Of a stretch of DNA of 18,937 nucleotides, positions 2,996 through 13,498 are shown in pieces (within the stretch, counting starts at the first letter, position 1; the number at the start of each line of letters is the position of its first letter). The translations under genes were made by a program, and so were the position numbers. The notes beneath the pieces are model-generated. The model worked only from the letters and a program-made list of their open reading frames with translations, was not told the DNA's origin and made no database searches. Source of the stretch: a virus (Duplodnaviria; Heunggongvirae; Uroviricota; Caudoviricetes); IMG/VR virus record IMGVR_UViG_2547132278_000005, positions 1 through 18,937 of that record; one strand, 5' to 3'.

Positions 2996-3478
2996 CTATC
3001 TGGTCAGGGTGTCGTACTGTTTTTCGCAGACTCTTCCGGCTTCGGCTGCCCGGTCAGCATACTCTGCCAGTTGTCTGTTTCTCTCGAGAGATTTGCTGAG
3101 CACGTCGGCAAGCAAAACTCCGGTGTCTGCGGCTGACGACCCAGCGCCGACAATGGCGTTATAGTGCCTGAGCTGCTCACGGATGGCAACGAGCTGTTGC
3201 TGCAACCGGCCAGCGCGAGCGGCAGCATCAAGAGCATCATTGCGCGCCTGGTCGATCCTCTGCTGCGATTCACGTTCATTGATCGCTTTCTCCTGTTCGT
3301 AGTGCTGACGAACTCTCTCATCTTCAGTTTTGCGGTCTTCTTTCGCCTGAGCATACCCGGCGTCGTACTGACGACTGCCGTGCACATTCCAGGCTACAAC
3401 TCCTGATATGACCAGAACAGCAAGCATCGCCATGATAACCAACTGTTTTCTGTATGCTTTTACGAATGCCCAGATCAT
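2996..3478 (-). CDS. Rz-like i-spanin (inner-membrane spanin subunit)
   Basis: N-terminal TM helix, charged coiled-coil periplasmic domain; start overlaps the endolysin stop (ATGA); last gene of the lysis cassette. Confidence 0.8.
3004..3240 (-). CDS. Rz1-like o-spanin lipoprotein embedded in the +1 frame of Rz
   Basis: Internal ATG of ORF 3004-3387 gives [17 protein letters not shown]... with lipobox LAGC and a Pro/Ser-rich mature part, fully inside Rz. Exact start (3240 vs 3237) uncertain. Confidence 0.6.
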   Translation of the reverse strand: MMLLMLPLALAGCSNSSLPSVSSSGTITPLSALGRQPQTPEFCLPTCSANLSRETDNWQSMLTGQPKPEESAKNSTTP

Positions 3479-4104
3479 ACCGTCAGTACCTTACTGGCAG
3501 TGATGTACCGCGCGCGCCGGTCGTCGATGCCGTTCCTGCCACCATTGATAATCATAGTTACACGTACAATATCTCCGGTATACTTCATGCAGCCTTTGCA
3601 GGAGAAGAACCAGGCCGCGCTACGAGCCGCGTATTCGTCCAGTGCCAGCAGTTCAGGATTCTCCAGCAGGTCAACTTTCAGACCGTTTCCACAGTCACGA
3701 TAGTTATTCAAGCCGGTAATCTGGATAAGCCCGCGCCCACGGTAATTCCAGCCATCGCCGGGAGCATTGTTACCCATGCGTTTGCTGTATACCAGATTTG
3801 CGATCGCGCGCTGGCGCTCAAGTGGCAATGGTGGTTCACCAGCACGGCGCCCTAGTGCATTAGCCTGTTCCTGGGTGAGGCGTCCAGTCCTGACAAAGCT
3901 CGCCAGTCCGGTAACGCTGTAGTTGAAATTCTCCTGCAACCTAGTGAAGCCCCCAGACTCATGCCCGACTTGAGCAATAAACATTGCCTGATCTTCTGCT
4001 TTGCTGATACCAAACTCTTTCATCGCAGAAGTTATATGCGAGAACCAGCGAGCGGCCAGCACCTCGCTAATACCAGCAGCTCGCTGGAATTGCTTAATCT
4101 CCAT
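3475..4104 (-). CDS. Endolysin, glycoside hydrolase family 19 (chitinase-like lysozyme)
   Basis: GH19 motifs: [12 protein letters not shown] (catalytic Glu, compare plant chitinase AQTSHETTGG), second Glu in LQENFNY, and [15 protein letters not shown] (compare GRGPIQLSWNYNY); SD GAGG; overlaps flanking genes. Confidence 0.9.
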
Positions 4105-4402
4105 GTTTAGACCTCGTTATTTTGAAAATCTGAACGACGTTACCGCGCGTTTTAATAACCGCAGCAAGCATGACAGCGTTGATAATGACCTCTGATAAAT
4201 CCACAGCCATTGGCGTGCGTAACCAGATTGCATAAACGACACGAACTGGAATACTGGCCGCAGCAACAATCAGGAAATAAGCAAGCCACCCTCCCCATCT
4301 TCGGTGTTGAGATCCGTTACGCCGGAATGTGACAACGCGAATTGCTATACCAGTACAAATGACTGCATTAGTGATAAGCAAAAAAAACTCATGCGTTACC
4401 AT
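4094..4402 (-). CDS. Holin/antiholin-like small membrane protein (3 predicted TM helices)
   Basis: 102 aa, three hydrophobic segments, basic C-terminus; SD GGGGAG; overlaps the upstream membrane gene and the endolysin start, so sits immediately before the endolysin. Confidence 0.6.
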
Positions 4403-4793
4403 CGTCTTTTCTCCCCGGAATTAACTCGCGTGGATTATCTGAACGGTGATAGAGCCATATGCCAATACGCACAGCCACAATTGCTGAAACAAATGCACCA
4501 ACAGAAAAGGCCACTCCGCCTTCAAAAGAATCCTGTGTAATCGTTGGAATTAAGCTGGCTACTCCTATTAGGATTGACGAAGTTGGTTTGTAGAAGAGCA
4601 ATCCACAAAGGAAACTAAGCATGGACAAAAGAACTCTGCGACGAACTGGATACTCTACGGCAGAGGTAATGAAAATTACCGCCCCAGATAAAGAACCTAA
4701 TGCAACCTCTGGTGGCACACCTGCAATAAAAGCAATCAGGCCACCAACGCCAATTGATTGATTTAATTGGTAATTTGTAAATACACCAGACAT
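4389..4793 (-). CDS. Holin-like membrane protein (4 predicted TM helices)
   Basis: Four hydrophobic helices and a charged C-terminus ([19 protein letters not shown]); ATG at 4793 preceded by GGTGG (the ORF track starts at the GTG at 4802, which has no SD). Confidence 0.55.
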   Translation of the reverse strand: MSGVFTNYQLNQSIGVGGLIAFIAGVPPEVALGSLSGAVIFITSAVEYPVRRRVLLSMLSFLCGLLFYKPTSSILIGVASLIPTITQDSFEGGVAFSVGAFVSAIVAVRIGIWLYHRSDNPRELIPGRKDDGNA

Positions 4794-4850
4794 TTCAACC
4801 ACCCGTTAACATACATAAAAACCTCGTTAATCAAAAATAGAAACACATAA

Positions 4851-4901: not shown

Positions 4902-7400
4902 TTATATGGCTACCATGGCTGTAGAGCCAGAGCCATAGGCACTTGATTCTAACTCGAGAGTGTAATATCCATTCTTAGTACCACCATCAACTCCTGACCA
5001 ATCAAATGATAATGAAATCCAGTAACCACTTTCACTAGGATCTTGCACAAGATTGTCACCCATACCCCTTATACGCCTAATAGGTTGATTAGGGCCGACA
5101 GAATCAACTTCATATATATCTGTCATATTTCGTCCTATCTGTCTGGCTGTGATAACAGGCCAAGAGCCACTATAATTTAATATAGTAACAAGGAATTGAG
5201 TGTCATTGTTTATCTTGGAAAGTATAGCTTCAATATACCCATTACCATGCGTTCCTCCTTTTGAGTTTATGCGTAGCTTTGCTATCCCAGTGTCAAACAT
5301 ATTTAGTCTGTTATCAAACGTTCTTGGATGCAGATCAGCTGGAAGAGGCAATCGAATAGAAGATAAAGTATATGGGGATGGTGTATCTTCTGGATTACCT
5401 ATGATCATATTTGGTAATCTTACTACAATTGATTCTCTAACCCCTTTTTGAATACCAGTTACCGGTTGGGATAAATGAACATGGACTGGGCGTATAGTAA
5501 TCCCCTGAATACTTGCATATCCTGTTGTTGTACCATTAAGATTATTAAATATAGCTATAGTTTTCCACCCTCTCCCCACTAAATTAGCAGCTCGTTTGGG
5601 AATTGTATCAAGTTTATGATTATGTCTATTTCTTAAAAAACGACCTGTTGATTGCTGAGCATATAAATTATGCCATAAGCTAGAACGTTGTGTTGAATAT
5701 GGATATATATCAACTGCTCCGGCATACCATCCATCAGTGACAATTGATATCTGATTATCATCCCAATAACCAATTACATCTACCTCAGCAGCCTCAGCAT
5801 CAAGATAAAAACTAAATGTTGCCATTGCTGCTGTATTAATGGGAAAGCCACCAAGAATACCTTGTAAAGTTGAAGCTCTTTGATTATAAACATTCACTAA
5901 GTTTGAATATACATCATAAAATCCGACTTGATCAGATTGTTTTCCAGGCCATGTATGCACTTCAGATGATATTGGTCTGTTACCCTGAAGTAACCCTCCA
6001 CCCAAAAGCATGGATACCATTGCCTCTCCTAAAATAGCATATCCTTTACTATTAAAGTGAACAGGGTCGCTTTGAATAGAACCATACTGTCTATTATAAG
6101 CAATTTCATGGGCAGGAAAATAAGCACATCCATAAACTGATGCAAGATTTCTTATTGACTCTCCCCACATTTGCCAAAGAGGATCCCCTTCCCCATTACC
6201 ACCGCTGGCAGGACTACAAAGTACAACCCCCATCCCCCAGTCAATAAGCTTACGAATAAATAACTCCATATTTTTCATATATGTATCGTAAGTCTGGCTA
6301 TCAGTATTAGCGGAGTCGTTAATTGCATACATTAAAAATGCTATATCGCAATTTGGATTAGACTGCCAATCAGGTTCATTATAAGCACGGTACGCTGTAT
6401 AACCTGATTTTGCTCGAACAGTTATTGTTACCGGGCAGCCAGACAATATTGGAAGTGCGTTCTTTATAGCCTTTGGATATGTCATTGTTGCATGGCGATA
6501 ATTATCACCAACGCAAACATCATCATCTTCTGGAGCGATAGTATCGGATGTATTAACATCATATCCAGCCGTTATTGAGTCCCCCTGACACAATATTTTT
6601 ATCCCTATTTTTTTTCGTAACTTATAATGAGCTAACGTAAGGTTTCTGATATTTTTTGAACGGTATTCTGCACTATCAAGAGATATCAACCACTCTTGAA
6701 TATTACGATTATCCGATGTATTAATAATGCTGGCACCTGTTGGCTTTGCCAACTCAATAAGTACATCAGATGCTGAACCAGATTCAGGAAGGACCATTAT
6801 CGGATTTCCAGAGTCATCCATAGCAACAATCTTATTCTTACGCTGCTCAATTCCCGGCAAAGCTGGTATAGGTTCAGGGGTTCGTAGCGTTCTGATCTGG
6901 TTTGTTTCAGAAACTCCATCAACATAATTTTTAGTCGCCGCATCTTGAGCGCGTGACGGTTCACGAAGATTGCGAATGTAGTTTCCCTGTGCATCATAAT
7001 AGTTAGCCACAAACGACGGCTTGCGTAACGCCAGGCTAAACCAGCTACGAACCTGCTGAATCAACATCGTTATTTTATCAAAAGCATTCTCATGCACTTC
7101 TGCAAAAAACTTTCCCTGATTACGCAGATCCATTTCCTGAGTAACAGGAAGCTCACGAGCTATAGATATCTGATGACCTCTAGCCAACGCCTCCGACAGA
7201 ACAACACTGCCGCCGTTGTACCCTCCAGCCCCGGTAACTGTGTAATCAGTATCAAGGGTCAGCACACTGACATTCTCGTTCAGGTCAACAACCTGCACCA
7301 CCAGATCCGATTTATTGAAAATCCTAAAGGTGTAAGGAAATGATGTCGTAACGCCGTTACCTGTGTATTCGTTGTGGTCAACTTCGGTTGAGACCGTCAT
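4902..7400 (-). CDS. Tailspike / receptor-binding protein with T7 gp17-like N-terminal anchor and central SGNH (GDSL) esterase domain
   Basis: 832 aa; N-terminus (YTGNGVTTSFPYTF...LVVQVVD...VLTLDTDYTV) resembles the conserved podovirus tail-fibre anchor; SGNH blocks GDS at 6576-6584 (ILCQGDSITAGYD) and DPVH (catalytic Asp/His) in SDPVHFNSKGY; SD GGAGA. Confidence 0.85.
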   Translation of the reverse strand: MTVSTEVDHNEYTGNGVTTSFPYTFRIFNKSDLVVQVVDLNENVSVLTLDTDYTVTGAGGYNGGSVVLSEALARGHQISIARELPVTQEMDLRNQGKFFAEVHENAFDKITMLIQQVRSWFSLALRKPSFVANYYDAQGNYIRNLREPSRAQDAATKNYVDGVSETNQIRTLRTPEPIPALPGIEQRKNKIVAMDDSGNPIMVLPESGSASDVLIELAKPTGASIINTSDNRNIQEWLISLDSAEYRSKNIRNLTLAHYKLRKKIGIKILCQGDSITAGYDVNTSDTIAPEDDDVCVGDNYRHATMTYPKAIKNALPILSGCPVTITVRAKSGYTAYRAYNEPDWQSNPNCDIAFLMYAINDSANTDSQTYDTYMKNMELFIRKLIDWGMGVVLCSPASGGNGEGDPLWQMWGESIRNLASVYGCAYFPAHEIAYNRQYGSIQSDPVHFNSKGYAILGEAMVSMLLGGGLLQGNRPISSEVHTWPGKQSDQVGFYDVYSNLVNVYNQRASTLQGILGGFPINTAAMATFSFYLDAEAAEVDVIGYWDDNQISIVTDGWYAGAVDIYPYSTQRSSLWHNLYAQQSTGRFLRNRHNHKLDTIPKRAANLVGRGWKTIAIFNNLNGTTTGYASIQGITIRPVHVHLSQPVTGIQKGVRESIVVRLPNMIIGNPEDTPSPYTLSSIRLPLPADLHPRTFDNRLNMFDTGIAKLRINSKGGTHGNGYIEAILSKINNDTQFLVTILNYSGSWPVITARQIGRNMTDIYEVDSVGPNQPIRRIRGMGDNLVQDPSESGYWISLSFDWSGVDGGTKNGYYTLELESSAYGSGSTAMVAI

Positions 7401-7503
7401 GTTAAATCTCCAGATAGTCGCAGCACCCGTTGCGCCGCATATCCGGTTATTCTATTACCTTAAAAACCACATATGGATAGATAACCCATAAATACGAATA
7501 GAT

Positions 7504-7520
7504 ATTACCTTTCGGGTAAT
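7504..7520. promoter_or_regulatory. Operator-like palindrome ATTACC-tttcg-GGTAAT (copy 1 of 4)
   Basis: Perfect 6-bp inverted arms with 5-bp spacer in the divergent region between the tailspike and the LexA-box gene; the same arms recur at 8624, 8717 and 9725. Confidence 0.5.
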
Positions 7521-7556
7521 TTGCAAAACGTGCTGGATAGCAAACAAATTATTTGC

Positions 7557-7576
7557 TACTGTATAAATATACAGTT
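7557..7576 (+). promoter_or_regulatory. LexA (SOS) box
   Basis: TACTGTATAAATATACAGTT against consensus TACTGTATATATATACAGTA (CTGT-N8-ACAG, 18/20), ending 20 bp upstream of the ATG at 7596. Confidence 0.75.
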
Positions 7577-7595
7577 ATTGCATGGAGAAGATAAG

Positions 7596-7853
7596 ATGCA
7601 GCAGTATCACTATCCACTGGAAGACGGATTTACCGAAAGGATTCACACGCCGGGAGGCGTCAGATCACTAGTGGAGGGATCGCACTTGATGAAATTACTC
7701 CGGGATCTCGATAAGGATGGATTTAATGTCGATGGCCCACTTGCCGAACTGACTGCACTGATTAACTACGTCACCAGCTCACAGATGTCTATGCGGGATC
7801 TGCAAACACATCTCGACTATTGTGCCGAACAATTACGAAAACAAACCCGGTAA
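7596..7853 (+). CDS. Small SOS-regulated protein (85 aa), paralog of the C-terminal domain of the AntA-like antirepressor; putative antirepressor module
   Basis: ATG with SD GGAGAAG directly downstream of the LexA box; aligns with residues ~130-210 of the 9004-9660 protein (shared GxxSL.E.S.LM.LL..L..DG..V.G..AELT...Y......RD.QTH..Y). The ORF track starts upstream at 7521, but that extension overlaps the promoter/LexA box. Confidence 0.65.
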   Translation: MQQYHYPLEDGFTERIHTPGGVRSLVEGSHLMKLLRDLDKDGFNVDGPLAELTALINYVTSSQMSMRDLQTHLDYCAEQLRKQTR

Positions 7854-7860
7854 ATTTAAA

Positions 7861-7876
7861 GGCCGCAAGAGCGGCC
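7861..7876. terminator. GC hairpin (GGCCGC-aaga-GCGGCC) between convergent genes, putative bidirectional terminator
   Basis: Perfect 6-bp GC stem flanked by AT-rich sequence on both sides; overlaps the stop of the minus-strand 7876-8604 gene. Confidence 0.5.
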
Positions 7877-8604
7877 TATCGTTTCGCTTTGTGCTCGTCC
7901 CAGCACGTTTTGCACCATGCCATTAAGCCATCCGCATTTTGATTATTAGGGTAAAAGCTTGTTCGTTTTCTGCGGACATTACAAATTGGGCACCACTTCA
8001 TATGGCGTGTATTCTTTGGGCCATCGAGACACCTTGCACACCACTTAGTCAATCCATCTGGATTTTTTGACGATTTCCTGAATTTTTCATATGGTAGGTT
8101 TATTCTGCATCGCAAGCACTGCTTGCTACCACTTGAAACTCTGTTAGCTGATTCTTCTTTTGGCGGCGATACAGAAGGTATTCTTGCTGGCTCTGATACT
8201 GCCTGAGGTGCTTTTTTAGATGACTGAGACGATATGTCATCACCAGGGAATCTTCCATGATATGCCGGACGCGTTGACACTCCAGGTGGAAGCTCAGCTG
8301 TAAACGGCTTTGGCTGAATCAGTTGCCTCTCTTTTGCTAACTCCTGCTGTTTATAATATGTCTGGATTACCGCACTATCATAAGCAGGAGGTGCGGAAAT
8401 ATTAGGCGCATTACCTCCAGTTTTTTGAAACTGAGTAGAGGTGTGTTCTATCACCTGTGTACGATTAATCGTTATCTCCCCATCTTCGGTCTTTATCGTT
8501 TTGTTATGATTAACGACCGTACGATCAGAGATCTTAGTCTTGTTCTGGTTGATAACGTAAATAATCACCGCAACCACACCAACAACTATCCAGAAAACTT
8601 CCAT
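7876..8604 (-). CDS. Membrane-anchored protein with two tandem C-x2-C-x20-C-x2-C zinc-ribbon repeats
   Basis: N-terminal TM helix (FWIVVGVVAVIIYVI), Pro/Ser-rich linker, then CLRCRINLPYEKFRKSSKNPDGLTKWCARC and CPICNVRRKRTSFYPNNQNADGLMAWCKTC (shared N.DGL..WC..C); SD GAGGA. Confidence 0.75.
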   Translation of the reverse strand: MEVFWIVVGVVAVIIYVINQNKTKISDRTVVNHNKTIKTEDGEITINRTQVIEHTSTQFQKTGGNAPNISAPPAYDSAVIQTYYKQQELAKERQLIQPKPFTAELPPGVSTRPAYHGRFPGDDISSQSSKKAPQAVSEPARIPSVSPPKEESANRVSSGSKQCLRCRINLPYEKFRKSSKNPDGLTKWCARCLDGPKNTRHMKWCPICNVRRKRTSFYPNNQNADGLMAWCKTCWDEHKAKR

Positions 8605-8623
8605 TGCTTTTCCTCACAATAAC

Positions 8624-8640
8624 ATTACCTTAAAGGTAAT
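8624..8640. promoter_or_regulatory. Operator-like palindrome ATTACC-ttaaa-GGTAAT (copy 2 of 4)
   Basis: Perfect palindrome about 20 bp upstream of the start codon of the 7876-8604 gene, abutting its SD. Confidence 0.5.
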
Positions 8641-8716
8641 ATCTTGCTTTCAGGTGATCAAGCGTTAAACGCAATCAACCAAATACGGTTGATTTTAATA
8701 TTTCTTCGCGTTTATC

Positions 8717-8733
8717 ATTACCTTTGCGGTAAA
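8717..8733. promoter_or_regulatory. Operator-like palindrome ATTACC-tttgc-GGTAAa (copy 3 of 4)
   Basis: Same arms and spacing as the other copies; lies at the head of the structured leader upstream of the AntA-like gene. Confidence 0.5.
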
Positions 8734-8767
8734 TTTACATTGCACTCCTCTTGTGCCATAGTAATCG

Positions 8768-8845
8768 GGCACTGGCAAAATCCAGTGCCGGGATTGGTCT
8801 CCCGGATTACTAAGTGGCGCATACCACGCCAGACGTGGTTTTTTT
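8768..8845 (+). other. Structured non-coding leader: two GC hairpins followed by a terminator-like hairpin with T-run (possible attenuator or small RNA)
   Basis: GGCACTGG-caaaat-CCAGTGCC (8768-8789); CCGGGA-ttggtc-TCCCGG (8788-8805); CCACG-ccaga-CGTGG-TTTTTTT (8824-8845). No credible ORF or RBS in this stretch. Confidence 0.3.
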
Positions 8846-9003
8846 ATGCGTATAGCACAGTCATGCCAGAATTATGGTGGGCTGAATGGGGGTCCGAAAG
8901 GACGCCGGTACCACTTAGGCCGGTAAGACCAACTCCGTTCAGTTCACCACCATCTGATTGGTCTCAGCGGTGGTGATGTAATTCGCTAAGTGGAGACGCC
9001 ATC

Positions 9004-9660
9004 ATGAACGCTCAACTCATCCCCGTATTCAACGGCACTATATCTAACGAAACAGCCCTACTTTGTAATGCCCGCGATCTGCACGCTTTTTTAGGTGTTA
9101 AAAAGGTGTTTGCAGCATGGATTACAAATCGCATATCAGAATACGAATTCATTGAAAATCAAGACTATATTTTGCTTTCCAATTTGGGAAAGCAAACATC
9201 TGGTAGAGGCGGCCACAACCGCAAAGAGTACCACCTCACCCTTGATACAGCCAAAGAGCTGGCGATGGTCGAGCGTAACGAAAAAGGTCGCCAGGTGCGA
9301 CGCTACTTCATTGAATGCGAGAAACGTTTAAGACAACAAGAAACAAAAGTGGAGAAGGTCTTGTCAGGCTTCATGCCCGCCATTATGGAGGCGATCAAGC
9401 TGGAAGACAAAAAAGAATACAGCGCCCCACTGAAGCCCGGCTACCGTAGCCTGATTCATTCGCCGTCTGGTGTTCTCGGCCTGACGGAGAACTCACTGCT
9501 GATGAATTTGCTGAACCAGTTACAGGAAGACGGGCACGACGTATCGGGCGCGGCGGCGGAACTGACCACCATGTTCTGCTACATCGTCGGTGTGAGCAAA
9601 TGCCTGCGTGATATCCAGACCCACGCGGAGTACATCAACGACAAGGCAGGGTTCTTCTGA
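9004..9660 (+). CDS. AntA-family phage antirepressor-like protein (N-terminal AntA domain plus C-terminal domain shared with the 7596-7853 protein)
   Basis: N-terminus LIPVFNG...[33 protein letters not shown]...[14 protein letters not shown]...[11 protein letters not shown] matches the AntA/AntB antirepressor family pattern; SD GGAG. Confidence 0.8.
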
Positions 9661-9724
9661 CAGAACGGCGGCACAGGGATGTGCCTTTAAATAATTCTGT
9701 ACGATTGCAGGTGAATAGCTTACT

Positions 9725-9741
9725 ATTACCTCAAGGGTAAG
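9725..9741. promoter_or_regulatory. Operator-like palindrome ATTACC-tcaag-GGTAAg (copy 4 of 4)
   Basis: Same arms and spacing; about 60 bp upstream of the 9800 start codon and downstream of a weak hairpin terminator (9670-9696). Confidence 0.5.
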
Positions 9742-9799
9742 AAAGCATTTTTAATCTTCCCTTCAAAACGCGTCCTGTAGCCAAACATGGGAGGACGAA

Positions 9800-10432
9800 A
9801 TGAGAACAAATACAACAAGAAAAGCGATGCCATACATTATCCCAGAAGCAGATTTCGATAGAAAACTGAACATGTCTGAGAAGAACACTAGTCACACCGA
9901 AAGCTACTTAGCGAAAGGTGTGGTTGATTTCGTTCTTCCGGGATTCACAACACCTTATGGTTATCGCCTTGTAAAATCTTGTAATGGCGATCATTACAGA
10001 ATGATTACTACCAGCGATACTCCAGAAACGGTGTATGCGGTTAAGTTAATCTTTCGGGAAGATATCGTCGAAGCCAAAAGAACATGTACGCAGATCATGG
10101 TATGGCGTACGCCTAATGTTATTCATGACCGTGCTGTTCATGGTTTGCCTCAGATTTTTTTTCAGTTCTTCCTAGAGCAATATGCGATCGTTGTATCTGA
10201 TGAGCAACAAACAATCGATGGGAGAAGATTCTGGGAAAGAATGATTTCTTGGGCTATAAACACCCCGGGATATAATGTATACGTTTCAGATGGCTCTGAA
10301 GAAGATAGACCTCTTAGCTTCATGACATCATGGGATGATTTCTATAGCCAGTGGGCTGATTTCTGTTGGGGCAGTGATAAAGATGTGCATACCCACAGAC
10401 TACTGGTTATAAGCAAAGATAAACTGCATTAA
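9800..10432 (+). CDS. Hypothetical protein (210 aa), unassigned accessory-island gene
   Basis: Strong SD GGGAGGA; soluble, Trp/Asp-rich, no recognised motif; followed immediately by a strong terminator. Confidence 0.75.
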   Translation: MRTNTTRKAMPYIIPEADFDRKLNMSEKNTSHTESYLAKGVVDFVLPGFTTPYGYRLVKSCNGDHYRMITTSDTPETVYAVKLIFREDIVEAKRTCTQIMVWRTPNVIHDRAVHGLPQIFFQFFLEQYAIVVSDEQQTIDGRRFWERMISWAINTPGYNVYVSDGSEEDRPLSFMTSWDDFYSQWADFCWGSDKDVHTHRLLVISKDKLH

Positions 10433-10437
10433 TAGAA

Positions 10438-10458
10438 GCCCGCGCCGCGGGCTTTTTT
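10438..10458 (+). terminator. Rho-independent terminator
   Basis: GCCCG-cgccg-CGGGC followed by TTTTTT, 6 bp after the stop codon at 10430-10432. Confidence 0.8.
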
Positions 10459-10495
10459 GTGTCTGCGGATTCCCGCCCGGGCGGCGGTGGCATTC

Positions 10496-10522
10496 GTTAA
10501 AAACAAGGCCGCGAAAGCGGCC
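10496..10522 (-). terminator. Rho-independent terminator for the minus-strand membrane-protein gene
   Basis: On the minus strand GGCCGC-tttc-GCGGCC is followed by TTGTTTTTAA; lies just downstream of the stop at 10532. Confidence 0.6.
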
Positions 10523-10531
10523 TGTGACATG

Positions 10532-10828
10532 TCACGCTCTTTTTCTGAATGATAGCCATTCGAAAAATGATGACATTCCACCGCAGACAATAGCAAATAT
10601 GATCCCACCAAAGAAGAGAAGGCCAGCCTGCCACCACTCCCACCGCCATACATCCACAGCGCCAACCATACCAACAATCGCTCCAACAAATGGAATATAG
10701 CTCACGATGAAAGCAATGGGGGCTGCAATTATCCAGTGCAATCCCCACCATGATTCAAGCCCAGCCATAATTGCTGCCAACTGAAAAAGACCAACGACGA
10801 TATAAACAATGAATCCTATAGCTTGCAT
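10532..10828 (-). CDS. Small polytopic membrane protein (98 aa), candidate superinfection-exclusion-type protein
   Basis: SD AGGTGA; 3-4 hydrophobic helices, Trp-rich loop (VWRWEWWQAG); sits directly after the ejection-protein genes, the position sieA occupies in P22. Confidence 0.7.
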   Translation of the reverse strand: MQAIGFIVYIVVGLFQLAAIMAGLESWWGLHWIIAAPIAFIVSYIPFVGAIVGMVGAVDVWRWEWWQAGLLFFGGIIFAIVCGGMSSFFEWLSFRKRA

Positions 10829-10840
10829 GTAGTCACCTAT

Positions 10841-10993
10841 TTACCCAGTAAAAATCAGAGGCCTCCCCTCAATAAGGCTTGCAACAAGAACTATTCCCTG
10901 CACAACAAAGATGAACCAGCAAATAGCTTGAGTCTGAGGGTTAAGAAAATATTTGTAGCGGTCAATAAATAACAACCCACCAGAAATTATCAC
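10841..10993 (-). CDS. Possible small hydrophobic peptide (50 aa, GTG start); speculative
   Basis: Hand-translated minus-strand ORF (V/M)IISGGLLFIDRYKYFLNPQTQAICWFIFVVQGIVLVASLIEGRPLIFTG; no clear SD. Confidence 0.2.
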   Translation of the reverse strand: MIISGGLLFIDRYKYFLNPQTQAICWFIFVVQGIVLVASLIEGRPLIFTG

Positions 10994-11023
10994 ACTCAAA
11001 ATAATTAAAAACACAACACTTCC

Positions 11024-13498
11024 TTATTGCGGAGTGACATCCTGAGGTCGCCACCAGTATGTCTGGTTAAACTCTTTCTTCGAACGTTGCTCCATTTTAC
11101 GCAAATAGCCTGGTGAAAAATACTCCTGCATCTGGTTAAAGATCATATGATCGAGAGCCGCCTTTAAGTACCAGAGATTCGCACCTGGCATCAAACCTTT
11201 CCCCAGCTTCACCAGATCACCACCAGTCTGCTCACTCTTCCCTTCCACAGCATTTAACGGTATGCCCTGAGCAATCTTCACTACGTCATCAACCAGACCA
11301 GCTACCGGGCCAAGCATCGACGCCAGCGCGCCGCTTCCGTACCTAGTGTGATCTGACAATAAAAAGTCACCGTAAAGGCCAAGACCACCACCTTTCAGTA
11401 GAGCACCAAGCCAAAATTTAGCAGCATCTTCTCCTGTCATCTCGCGAGGATTACGACCAGACGCAAGGTCGTTAAGTTGCTGCGACAAAGCGCCAAGAAT
11501 GGTCGTACTGGCAATAAACGTCGCAATATATGCCGCACGCCCACCAGCAGACGGCATACCCATAGCGCGTGACCAGTGACGCATAACCACCGAGATAGGG
11601 AACGATTTAAACAGGAAAACACTTCTCGTTAATTCACCTTTCCATGTTCCACGCTGAATACCAGAACCGGTTATCAGTTGCTCACGTGCTCCCGGTGTAA
11701 TAACAGCCATATCAACTTCTTCAGTTACGGCACCGAGCAGTTTACGCATTGCCTCAAATTTCACGCGTTCAGGCTCACCAAGATGTTTAACTGCTGAATC
11801 AGGGATACGCATAATGCTTTCCGGTGTCAGCATCGTATTATTGCCGTTCCCCCAGTCCTCCTGTTGCGCCAGCTTCCATACGCTCCAGTCTGTGTCAGTA
11901 ATCCCTTTGCTTTTCAGGATACGAAAATCAGAATCATCGAGGCTACGAAGGTCTGGTGTCCGTGACACTACTTCTCCCAGGCTTCCCATCATGGTTACGC
12001 CATAGGCGCGCTTGTGCGCATCTGACCATGCTGTAAGCCCACTGGCACGCATTACCGCCGTTGCCGCCCAACGAGACACAGACGGCCCCATATTATCCAT
12101 CGCCCAGCGGTTAACGCTGCCAAGTAGAGATTCCATCGCCAGGCCAGCGCGGCGCGCCCGCGCAAGCTCAGTACGGTTCGTTGGGTCCATAGCTTCAAGC
12201 TGGTTGCGAAATAACTGGTTCATTGGAAGGTTGGTAACCTTCGCAGACAGATACATGGTTCCAAGATCAGAGAACGATGACAGCAACGCGGATCCGAGTC
12301 TGCTGGCAACCAGCCAGTTGCGGATATTGTCAGACCATCGCGCGATGTGCGGATTCGCTACAGGCTGTGTTTTTCCGGAAATAAAGTTGTACAAGTTCTC
12401 TGTTTTGTTCGCCAGACGCTCGACGCTACCGGTTTTACTCGGGTTAGCTGTTGCCGTTTCTGCCTTAACCTGATCAAGAAGGGAGCGGAAAACATGATCG
12501 GGGTTTGGACCATATGTTTCCACCAGAGCAATATCTTTACTGATACCTTCCAGGTGACCGACCATGATTTCCCATAGAGAGCGATCACCATAAAGTTGTT
12601 GATATTGGAGATAGGAATCTGCATCTTTGAAATGTATCTGTCGTGATGCATTACCACGGTTAGCACGTGCGCCGGAAATTCGCATTCCGGTATCAGTAAG
12701 CTTATTCAGCCCACCAGTAGCGATCGTGTTATAAGCCTCTCCAAGAAATGCAGACAACTCGGCATCGTTCATCAGTTGTCCATCGGCTCGGGTATAATAT
12801 TTGCGATCCAGCTTACCTATAACATCGCCAACCCACTTATCCTTTGATACCGCCCCAACCTTTTCCATAGAATGATGTTGAGGGATCCCCCAGTTTTCGA
12901 GATAGCCAATGTCCCCACCAGCATCATTAAACCGGCGGCGCAGCAGCTCTGTAACTTCTCTCCACGCCTTAGCACCTTTTCTTGCTTTAGCATTGCCAGT
13001 ATTTTGCCCCCGCATTTCATATACCAGGTCACGTACGCCCGCTTCATCTTCAAACAGACCAAAAAAGCGAGGATCAACTGCTTCGAATGCCTCCTGCAAT
13101 TGACTCAATGCATAATCACGGGTGGCTTTTGTTCTGGATTCAACAGAGAGGAAATTAGATTTACCGTCTGCATTAAAAGCTATAGTACGGTTAAGAGCGC
13201 CAAGTTTCCCATCAGCCCCTTGATAGCTATTGATAAATTTATCCAATCTCTGACGCGCGGCTATAGTGAGAGCCACACGACGTTTCTTTAATGCCGCTTC
13301 TCGCTGTAATTCTTCAGATGCCAATTGTGCTGCTCGATATAGCCGCTCTGATTCGGAAAGTTGTCTCCACGACATCGGGTCATCACGAGCAATGGAGCGC
13401 ATATTTCGATAAATGCGGTCTTCAATGTTCTGTATTTCTCGCGCCGTTAACGTGCGCTGCGCCGCCTGCTGGACCGCTTGTATACATTCCTGTCTCAT
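11024..13498 (-). CDS. Large virion internal/ejection-type protein (824 aa), last gene of the structural operon
   Basis: Long intact ORF with SD GAGG, 5 nt after the upstream gene stop; size, composition and position are typical of podovirus internal/DNA-ejection proteins. Family not recognised. Confidence 0.8.
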   Translation of the reverse strand: MRQECIQAVQQAAQRTLTAREIQNIEDRIYRNMRSIARDDPMSWRQLSESERLYRAAQLASEELQREAALKKRRVALTIAARQRLDKFINSYQGADGKLGALNRTIAFNADGKSNFLSVESRTKATRDYALSQLQEAFEAVDPRFFGLFEDEAGVRDLVYEMRGQNTGNAKARKGAKAWREVTELLRRRFNDAGGDIGYLENWGIPQHHSMEKVGAVSKDKWVGDVIGKLDRKYYTRADGQLMNDAELSAFLGEAYNTIATGGLNKLTDTGMRISGARANRGNASRQIHFKDADSYLQYQQLYGDRSLWEIMVGHLEGISKDIALVETYGPNPDHVFRSLLDQVKAETATANPSKTGSVERLANKTENLYNFISGKTQPVANPHIARWSDNIRNWLVASRLGSALLSSFSDLGTMYLSAKVTNLPMNQLFRNQLEAMDPTNRTELARARRAGLAMESLLGSVNRWAMDNMGPSVSRWAATAVMRASGLTAWSDAHKRAYGVTMMGSLGEVVSRTPDLRSLDDSDFRILKSKGITDTDWSVWKLAQQEDWGNGNNTMLTPESIMRIPDSAVKHLGEPERVKFEAMRKLLGAVTEEVDMAVITPGAREQLITGSGIQRGTWKGELTRSVFLFKSFPISVVMRHWSRAMGMPSAGGRAAYIATFIASTTILGALSQQLNDLASGRNPREMTGEDAAKFWLGALLKGGGLGLYGDFLLSDHTRYGSGALASMLGPVAGLVDDVVKIAQGIPLNAVEGKSEQTGGDLVKLGKGLMPGANLWYLKAALDHMIFNQMQEYFSPGYLRKMEQRSKKEFNQTYWWRPQDVTPQ

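Follow-up and report, generated by a model that had tools for sequence, protein, structure and literature searches.

The window analysed here, 18,937 nucleotides of the IMG/VR virus record IMGVR_UViG_2547132278_000005, contains the minus-strand late genes of a Uetakevirus (epsilon15/phiV10-like) E. coli prophage, and these are broken at positions 7401-11023 by an island of 3,623 bp. We conclude, with a probability of roughly 80 %, that this island is a secondary immunity and accessory region with two antirepressor circuits, which share an effector domain and respond to different signals. Its regulatory core is, as far as homology can tell, of known kinds, combining the LexA-Ant switch of phage SPC32H with an IsrK/c4-antirepressor module of the P1/Gifsy-1 type, while its 242-aa, 210-aa and 98-aa genes are exchangeable, uncharacterised accessory genes. 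The conclusion rests on homologies, RNA family membership, complementarity, covariation, conservation of a LexA box and variability of the slot that the island occupies. From these we infer that LexA and the prophage repressor Rep bind here, that translation is blocked, that IsrK acts by titration, and which target the larger antirepressor, AntA, has.

The open reading frames (ORFs) of the tailspike (832 aa, 4902-7400, minus strand) and of an 824-aa virion protein (11024-13498, minus strand) bracket the island exactly. It contains six ORFs of mixed orientation, all six with good Shine-Dalgarno sequences, together with four strong terminators and one LexA box, and a 17-bp palindrome is present in it four times. 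An original prediction, made on this DNA before the present analysis, had described a minus-strand late operon interrupted by about 3.6 kb of mixed-orientation genes with their own terminators and operators, and the coordinates, terminators, LexA box and palindromes found here agree with that description.

The first of the two antirepressor genes, small ant (85 aa, 7596-7853, plus strand), has the position and orientation of its SPC32H counterpart, between the tailspike gene and the 824-aa virion gene and divergent from the former. The product was 86.7 % identical over 83 aa to that of the SPC32H gene annotated 'ant', and it matched chain E ('Anti-repressor protein') of PDB 5D50, the Rep-Ant structure of SPC32H, with E = 1.4e-46. 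It belongs to phrog_450 and has counterparts in epsilon15 gp19 and phiV10p24. Judged by these matches, the 85-aa protein is an ortholog of SPC32H Ant, a characterised LexA-controlled antirepressor. Kim & Ryu are said to have reported in 2013 that the LexA-controlled Ant of SPC32H acts on a non-cleavable Rep.

A LexA (SOS) box, TACTGTATAAATATACAGTT (7557-7576, plus strand), precedes the start codon of small ant by 20 nt. It has two mismatches to the 20-mer consensus, a level of agreement with no match in 200 shuffles, and it is the sole CTGT-N8-ACAG within the window. Both the box and the palindrome upstream of it are kept in the window, SPC32H, phiV10 and TL-2011b. The SOS-regulated small paralog of the original prediction was thus recovered: the LexA box is present, and small Ant is 43 % identical to residues 137-210 of AntA (E = 6e-17). 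The window resembles SPC32H in the 85-aa protein, its position and orientation in the slot, the LexA box and the upstream palindrome. Unlike the window, the SPC32H slot has no second antirepressor, no c4 or IsrK RNA and no accessory genes.

In SPC32H, Ant is produced after self-cleavage of LexA and inactivates the repressor through protein-protein contact, as a tetramer which binds two Rep dimers (PMC7380047, PMC9638917). By analogy with this 87 % identical protein, LexA bound at 7557-7576 would keep small ant off, and upon DNA damage LexA would be removed and small Ant produced, which would then bind the prophage repressor Rep and strip it from its operators. Of the antirepressor pair, small Ant is the characterised member and not a novelty.

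The second antirepressor, AntA (218 aa, 9004-9660, plus strand), has an N-terminal AntA/AntB domain (PF08346, E = 4e-26) and falls into phrog_377, 'anti-repressor Ant', which confirms the AntA-like antirepressor proposed earlier. Its C-terminal 80 residues are homologous to SPC32H Ant, residues 137-213 matching PDB 5D50 chain E with E = 4.6e-14, and in relatives a C-terminal domain of this type is joined to Bro-N, pRha or P22-type N-terminal domains. In AntA this domain presumably binds Rep-type repressors, and the two antirepressors of the window may represent one Rep-binding effector domain wired to two inputs, LexA and the IsrK/c4 pair. When the large Bro-N antirepressor encoded in the same slot of vB_EcoP_ZX5 was overexpressed, the prophage titre fell from 10^9 to 10^6 (PMC9782041).

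The 400-bp gap ahead of antA contains no tRNA or tmRNA, and it harbours two structured RNAs which the original prediction had overlooked. An IsrK-like leader RNA (8769-8845, plus strand) matched Rfam RF01394 isrK with 67.7 bits (gathering score 50, E = 7e-13), and a C4 antisense RNA (8870-8954, plus strand) matched RF01695 over the full length of the model, 1-87, with 61.2 bits (gathering score 45, E = 6e-10). The score for the c4-a1b1 target model RF03163, 39.9 bits, was under its gathering score of 46.7. A strong terminator, followed by a U-run, was found by the terminator scan inside the IsrK-like RNA (8823-8839, plus strand). The promoter predicted for the IsrK/c4/antA transcript consists of TTTACA (8734-8739) and CATAGT (8757-8762).

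Two segments of c4 show mismatch-free complementarity to sites both upstream and downstream of it, all on the plus strand. The hairpin loop a' (8 nt, CCACUUAG, 8911-8918) is complementary to a1 in the IsrK-like RNA (CUAAGUGG, 8810-8817) and to a2 downstream (CUAAGUGG, 8986-8993), and the single-stranded junction b' (7 nt, AGACCAA, 8926-8932) is complementary to b1 in the IsrK-like RNA (UUGGUCU, 8794-8800) and to b2 downstream (UUGGUCU, 8958-8964). The downstream site a2 overlaps the antA Shine-Dalgarno sequence GGAG (8991-8994) and ends 11 nt before the antA ATG. In the minimum free energy fold a' and b' are unpaired, and the region 8745-9010 had z = -5.3 relative to shuffled controls.

The pairing was compared across ten slot loci from E. 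coli, Enterobacter and Serratia. An isrK + C4 pair stands ahead of a large antirepressor gene in all ten, and the pair is absent from SPC32H. The loop element occurs in six forms (CUAAGUGG, CUAAAAGG, CUACAAAGG, GUCACAG(G), CUAAACGG and UCACU(C/U)AUGA) and the junction element in three (UUGGUCU, UUGGCGU and UUGAGAC), and the loop and junction forms are freely combined across the loci. In every one of the ten, a change in a c4 segment goes with matching changes at both its upstream and its downstream target, i.e. the changes are compensatory in three ways. The a2 site ends 9-12 nt ahead of the ATG in nine loci and overlaps the ATG in one. The code of the window type is CUAAGUGG/UUGGUCU and that of the phiV10 type CUAAAAGG/UUGGCGU. 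The comparison provides strong evidence for a functional c4/target pairing and for a role of the codes as immunity specificities, like those that distinguish P1 from P7.

The E. coli AREA_486 locus (4369-4602 of the examined stretch) combines the window-type loop code CUAAGUGG with the phiV10-type junction UUGGCGU, with three matched copies of each. As all copies of this chimeric code are matched, recombination or coordinated change must have taken place within the RNA module of about 200 bp.

The arrangement suggests how antA could be controlled. A promoter beside a Rep-operator-like palindrome would give rise to a transcript which either ends at the IsrK-like terminator or continues via c4 into antA. 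The two exposed segments of c4 would pair with b2 and a2 in front of antA and, because a2 covers the ribosome-binding site, AntA translation would be blocked, as P1/P7 c4 blocks icd/ant. The identical b1 and a1 sites in the short IsrK-like RNA could release AntA, either by titration of c4 or by a remodelling of the leader like that in Gifsy-1. Both the translational block by c4 and the titration by IsrK are read from complementarity and position.

Citron & Schuster reportedly described in 1990 the immI operon of P1/P7, with a C1-controlled promoter, the c4 antisense RNA, icd and ant. The window has much in common with that operon: an RF01695 RNA is derived from the same transcript as its target and has two exposed segments which pair with an upstream a1/b1 and a downstream a2/b2, the downstream target is set over a ribosome-binding site ahead of the antirepressor gene, specificity alleles differ by matched changes, and a repressor-operator-like site is found at the predicted promoter, with putative operators dispersed genome-wide. 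Unlike P1/P7, the window has no icd-like ORF, and a2 overlaps the Shine-Dalgarno sequence of the antirepressor gene itself. The antirepressor is also of a different type, an AntA-domain protein with an SPC32H-Ant-like C-terminus, and the element is an integrated podovirus prophage, whereas P1 and P7 are plasmid prophages. In P1, synthesis of the antirepressor is governed by the antisense RNA c4 together with C1 and Icd (PMC8201110).

The other system with which the module can be compared is the isrK-orf45-anrP locus of Gifsy-1 in Salmonella, for which the IsrK mechanism has been described (Hershko-Shalev et al. 2016, PMC4825925). As in Gifsy-1, an RF01394 RNA with its own terminator can be read through into a downstream stable RNA and an antirepressor gene, and the short RNA shares complementarity with the downstream RNA. 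In contrast to Gifsy-1, the window has no conserved orf45 equivalent, and activation by translational coupling in the Gifsy-1 style can therefore not operate identically. The toxicity of the AntQ antiterminator, to which the Gifsy-1 locus leads downstream, is likewise without counterpart in the window.

In P22, genes 16 and 9 flank the immI region (sieA, mnt, arc, ant and the sar RNA). The original prediction compared the two slots by position, and the analogy is apt, since the TL-2011b slot carries genuine P22-type arc/ant/sar genes. The window shares with P22 immI a slot between internal or ejection-type virion genes and the tailspike, as well as an antirepressor under antisense-RNA control. 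It differs in that it lacks homologs of Arc, Mnt and SieA, the sar RNA and a P22_AR-type N-terminal domain on Ant. No Rfam match to the sar RNA was obtained in the window at E ≤ 1, and no Arc homolog was found in the island; of the P22-type Ant the shared C-terminal domain alone matches, Pfam giving AntA and not P22_AR. The view that the content differs from that of described immI regions does not hold for its logic, as the small gene corresponds to SPC32H ant and antA stands under IsrK/c4. In TL-2011b itself (5368-5553 and 7472-8656 of the examined stretch), IsrK/c4 and a Bro-N antirepressor lie beside the P22-type arc/ant/sar genes, and the C-terminus of the P22-type Ant is 83 % identical to AntA residues 117-218.

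The palindrome ATTACC-N5-GGTAAT (17 bp) is present in the island in four copies with 0-1 mismatch, at 7504, 8624, 8717 and 9725, and the window as a whole has seven matches with at most two mismatches, compared to 0.65 expected. The copy ATTACCTTTCGGGTAAT (7504-7520) is a perfect match in the divergent tailspike/small-ant control region and is the one kept in SPC32H, phiV10 and TL-2011b. The copy ATTACCTTAAAGGTAAT (8624-8640), 20 bp upstream of the 242-aa start, is kept in TL-2011b, AREA_486 and 45E, and ATTACCTTTGCGGTAAA (8717-8733), also kept in relatives, abuts the predicted -35 of the IsrK/c4/antA promoter. The fourth, ATTACCTCAAGGGTAAG (9725-9741), is located upstream of a cargo position which is variously filled, with a YafO-type toxin module in TL-2011b and 45E and with orf210 in AREA_486.

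Genome-wide, the palindrome was found 10 times in phiv142-3 and 12 times in SPC32H, compared to 0.05 expected. In these two phages it stands at the start of nearly every transcription unit, i.e. terminase, head, tailspike/ant, lysis, both sides of rep, and replication. Two adjacent copies occupy the rep-cro intergenic region, from which rep and an early gene diverge, and a further two to three are found just past rep. The simplest reading is that the palindrome is a putative Rep operator. If so, the accessory genes are off in the lysogen, which argues against a classical prophage-encoded defence role for them. The dispersed layout recalls that of the P1 C1 operators.

The original prediction had proposed that the slot be compared across related prophages, and this comparison revealed a variable hotspot of 0.66-5.9 kb with differing gene sets. 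The slot is 0.66 kb in SPC32H, where it holds small ant and a 46-aa membrane ORF and nothing else, ~1.7 kb in phiV10, 2.9 kb in phiv142-3, 3.6 kb with six ORFs in the window, ~4.1 kb in AREA_486 and ~5.9 kb in TL-2011b. The closest DNA relatives of the island are the Escherichia phages phiv142-3, TL-2011b and phiV10. Coverage of at least 80 % of the island in one place was obtained in no phage record and in one complete E. coli genome (84 %), while parts of it are present in 880 of the 5426 complete E. coli genomes, and a tblastn matrix showed the modules reshuffled between relatives. We thus regard the slot, from these comparisons, as a variable immI-like hotspot of secondary-immunity and accessory genes.

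Single modules are closely conserved. The small ant, IsrK/c4, antA, 98-aa and 57-aa genes have 95-100 % identity in phiv142-3 and 45E, the 242-aa gene 97-100 % in 45E, AREA_486 and TL-2011b, and the 210-aa gene 100 % in AREA_486. Among the immediate relatives (phiv142-3, 45E, AREA_486, TL-2011b and phiV10) the exact gene combination of the window is found in no single record; phiV10 and TL-2011b differ from it by another c4 specificity and a Bro-N N-terminal domain on the antirepressor, and AREA_486 by its chimeric c4 specificity. On the records compared, the exact gene mosaic is new, and near-identical modules are already present in sequenced phages.

Between two terminators, at 10462-10497, the last 12 codons of a gene for a 53-aa 'transmembrane anchored protein' remain. 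The gene is intact in TL-2011b (gp43), 45E and AREA_486, and the remnant is a deletion scar.

Four of the six island genes lie outside the antirepressor circuits. The 242-aa protein (7876-8604, minus strand; phrog_6762) has an N-terminal transmembrane helix, a variable linker and a C-terminal tandem zinc finger of two CxxC...WCxxC units with invariant cysteines. In its AlphaFold2 (AF2) model residues 160-242 have a pLDDT (predicted local distance difference test) score above 90, the Pfam match to Stc1 is below threshold, and the sole fold match, a weak one, is to the Stc1 tandem zinc finger 2LUY (E = 5e-3). The gene recurs at the equivalent slot in Serratia and Enterobacter prophages.

The 210-aa protein (9800-10432, plus strand) is phrog_1349, and its family, of proteins about 200 aa long, includes 63 close homologs; a profile search found 902 clusters at E ≤ 1e-3, none of them annotated. 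The original prediction had left this protein without a function, and this stands, as there was no Pfam, NCBIfam, PADLOC or PDB sequence match, and ten remote relatives had no Pfam domain above threshold. Its fold weakly resembles those of GNATs, and the loop after the fourth core strand reads D-E-Q-Q-T-I-D-G-R-R, in which D134, T138, G141 and R143 are invariant and are placed where GNATs bind coenzyme A (CoA). No sequence match to a GNAT family was obtained, and the loop lacks the canonical Q/R-x-x-G-x-G/A CoA motif. The gene occurs at three accessory sites: the slot of the window, a Serratia siphoviral tail module, and after the lysis genes of the lambdoid phage LLS. In 45E and TL-2011b a YafO-type toxin module replaces it.

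In the Serratia siphoviral prophages (~6001-8000 of the examined stretches) a gene of the 210-aa family and P22-type ant/arc/sar are inserted together in the tail operon, between the gene for a DUF6246 protein and the tape-measure gene, as a second immI-like insert inside late genes. In the 210-aa family, two remote members are fusion proteins of 359 and 504 aa, extended at the N-terminus, and one of these two proteins has a sub-threshold SAD/SRA-like match (18 bits, cut-off 30.7).

The two remaining genes, both on the minus strand, encode small membrane proteins. The 98-aa protein (10532-10828; phrog_3075) has 3-4 predicted hydrophobic segments, is present in some relatives only and matches just 7 phage records, all of the Uetakevirus type. 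The 57-aa protein (10841-11014) has two predicted transmembrane segments, and its gene comes immediately after the 824-aa gene. By position it corresponds to SPC32H_019 and phiV10p21, the small membrane ORF which always follows the 824-aa gene, and has a 40 % identical counterpart in the Serratia loci; it could not be aligned to SPC32H_019, and no Pfam or PHROG-type family was found for it. The island membrane ORFs had no detectable relatives beyond a few Uetakevirus-type records and no homology to SieA or a named exclusion protein. The earlier description of membrane proteins in a sieA-equivalent position is thus right as to the position only.

Several points weigh against the reading of the island as a region of two antirepressor circuits. 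The rep gene lies outside the window, so that a non-cleavable Rep, and Rep as the repressor which AntA binds, are presumed here, and some regulator other than Rep might be what binds the palindrome. The promoter predictions in the scan were not above chance (8 compared to 6.8 expected), and the promoter assignments are therefore tentative. There is no conserved leader ORF of the icd or orf45 kind. A 37-codon ORF (MPELWW..., 8864-8976, plus strand) overlaps the c4 RNA at the position of Gifsy-1 orf45, and it has no clear Shine-Dalgarno sequence; phiV10 and AREA_486 have lost its start codon, and it is probably not coding. Given that a conserved leader ORF is missing, c4 most likely blocks antA translation directly, and the RNA circuit differs in detail from those of both P1 and Gifsy-1. 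The models for those two systems also make the role of the upstream element sound opposite, a decoy in P1 and an activator in Gifsy-1.

It could be asked whether AntA induces its own prophage at all, or is rather an anti-immunity or cross-talk factor against the repressors of other resident or related superinfecting phages, in which case the c4 specificity types would chiefly serve phage-phage competition and AntA would act in trans, like P22 Ant and the Gifsy antirepressors. As the effector domains of AntA and small Ant share just 43 % identity, their targets may differ; the slot of relatives carries up to three proteins with an AntA-type C-terminus on different N-terminal domains, several mix-and-match c4 specificities would fit heteroimmunity, and trans-acting antirepressors have been documented in Salmonella (PMC7380047; PMC3121763). 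Nevertheless, the AntA effector domain is homologous to a protein shown to bind Uetakevirus Rep, and lysogeny of vB_EcoP_ZX5 was reduced when the equivalent antirepressor of that phage was overexpressed (PMC9782041). We consider such a role possible, if on balance doubtful, and it is compatible with, rather than exclusive of, two circuits acting on the resident prophage. That the island serves mainly for superinfection exclusion or defence against phages, possibly as a new system, with its membrane, zinc-finger and 210-aa proteins acting on incoming phages, seems decidedly unlikely. Three accessory genes are without an assigned function, the position of the 210-aa gene holds a YafO-type toxin module in relatives, and the 210-aa gene is found near antirepressor modules at other accessory sites too. 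The fold of its product weakly resembles those of GNATs, which include tRNA-acetylating toxins, and a membrane-tethered zinc-finger protein could conceivably work at the site of DNA entry. However, none of the six island proteins matched a PADLOC-DB v2 family at E ≤ 0.1, the NCBIfam search of the island proteins gave nothing meaningful, and there was no homology to P22 SieA or to named exclusion proteins. The 'novel defence system' suggested in the original prediction thus gained no positive evidence, no PADLOC model being matched. The two antirepressor circuits fully account for the regulatory core, the 242-aa and 210-aa genes are preceded by Rep-operator-like sites, which point to repression in the lysogen, the opposite of what defence needs, and the 57-aa ORF has a constant place in the late operon.

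Two further explanations deserve little weight. If the IsrK/c4 elements and antA were decaying, non-functional relics, the lower Rfam scores of the window (61-68 bits, compared to 76-78 bits in phiV10 and TL-2011b) would find an explanation, and the 12-codon remnant shows that deletions have taken place in the island. Both RNAs nevertheless exceed the Rfam gathering scores, c4 is complementary to each of its four target sites without a mismatch, and neither the terminator nor the antA ORF is disrupted. The isolated, viable phage phiv142-3 and 45E have the module at 99.5-100 % identity, and the co-variation across genera shows purifying selection on the pairing; decay is therefore very improbable. 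Even less credible is a conserved role of the island genes in virion structure or assembly, as might be thought from their location within the late region and from the 57-aa and 98-aa ORFs, which are co-oriented with the late operon and lie upstream of its terminator. The viable phage SPC32H has just ant and one 46-aa ORF in the slot, and the whole island is found in no complete E. coli genome, the best coverage being 84 %. With modules shuffled and the length of the slot ranging from 0.66 to 5.9 kb with different gene sets, this explanation was rejected.

Two circuits with a common effector domain remain, in our view, the best account of the island, and they resolve what appeared to be a novel element into known, testable circuitry. 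In epsilon15 relatives of E. coli, Enterobacter and Serratia, the SOS-antirepressor switch of SPC32H would be joined with a P1-type antisense-RNA immunity module. This bears on prophage induction and competition in pathogenic E. coli, as phiV10 and TL-2011b infect O157 and O103. The 210-aa family and the membrane-tethered zinc-finger family travel with the antirepressor modules and are reasonable candidates for functional screening.

A more speculative proposal, which we regard as rather unlikely, has two separate parts. One or more accessory genes may encode a new function in phage-phage competition, i.e. exclusion or counter-defence, the candidates being the GNAT-like 210-aa protein with its family of ~900 clusters without annotation, the membrane-tethered protein with the tandem zinc finger, and the 98-aa membrane protein. 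This function might be switched on alongside the antirepressor circuits via the Rep-operator-like sites. Separately, the antirepressor pair may constitute a two-input induction switch, with SOS acting via LexA and a threshold set by RNA via IsrK/c4, and the interchangeable a/b codes of this switch would then mark out immunity groups among enterobacterial Uetakevirus-like prophages.

The island as a whole is rich in terminator-like sites, 13 being found compared to 3.5 ± 2.1 in shuffles. Besides the one inside the IsrK-like RNA, three are strong. A GC-rich hairpin, AGGCCGCTCTTGCGGCCT (7860-7877), assigned to the minus strand by the scan, lies between the convergent small ant and 242-aa genes and may terminate small ant too. 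The intrinsic terminator of the 210-aa gene (10434-10456, plus strand) consists of a 10-bp stem followed by a T-run, and a further intrinsic terminator (10506-10523, minus strand) would end the minus-strand transcript through the 824-aa, 57-aa and 98-aa genes; both were found in the terminator scan.

Outside the island, bases 1-2990 correspond to the E. coli core region pdeF-yfgG-yfgH-yfgI, which is present in 5377 of the 5426 complete genomes, and the lysis cassette at 2996-4802 is therefore the end of the prophage. Its boundary is directly right of yfgI, adjoining this cassette, and is consistent with the attB at the guaA 3' end known for relatives (PMC9782041). The host genes in the flank are a pdeF fragment (MASE1), yfgG, yfgH (a glycine-zipper lipoprotein) and yfgI (DUF5384).

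The 832-aa tailspike encoded next to the island contains a GDSL/SGNH esterase domain at residues ~270-460 (PF13472, E = 1e-11), and the tailspikes of relatives match only its N-terminal 160-270 residues, which suggests a receptor-deacetylating spike with a swapped C-terminal module.

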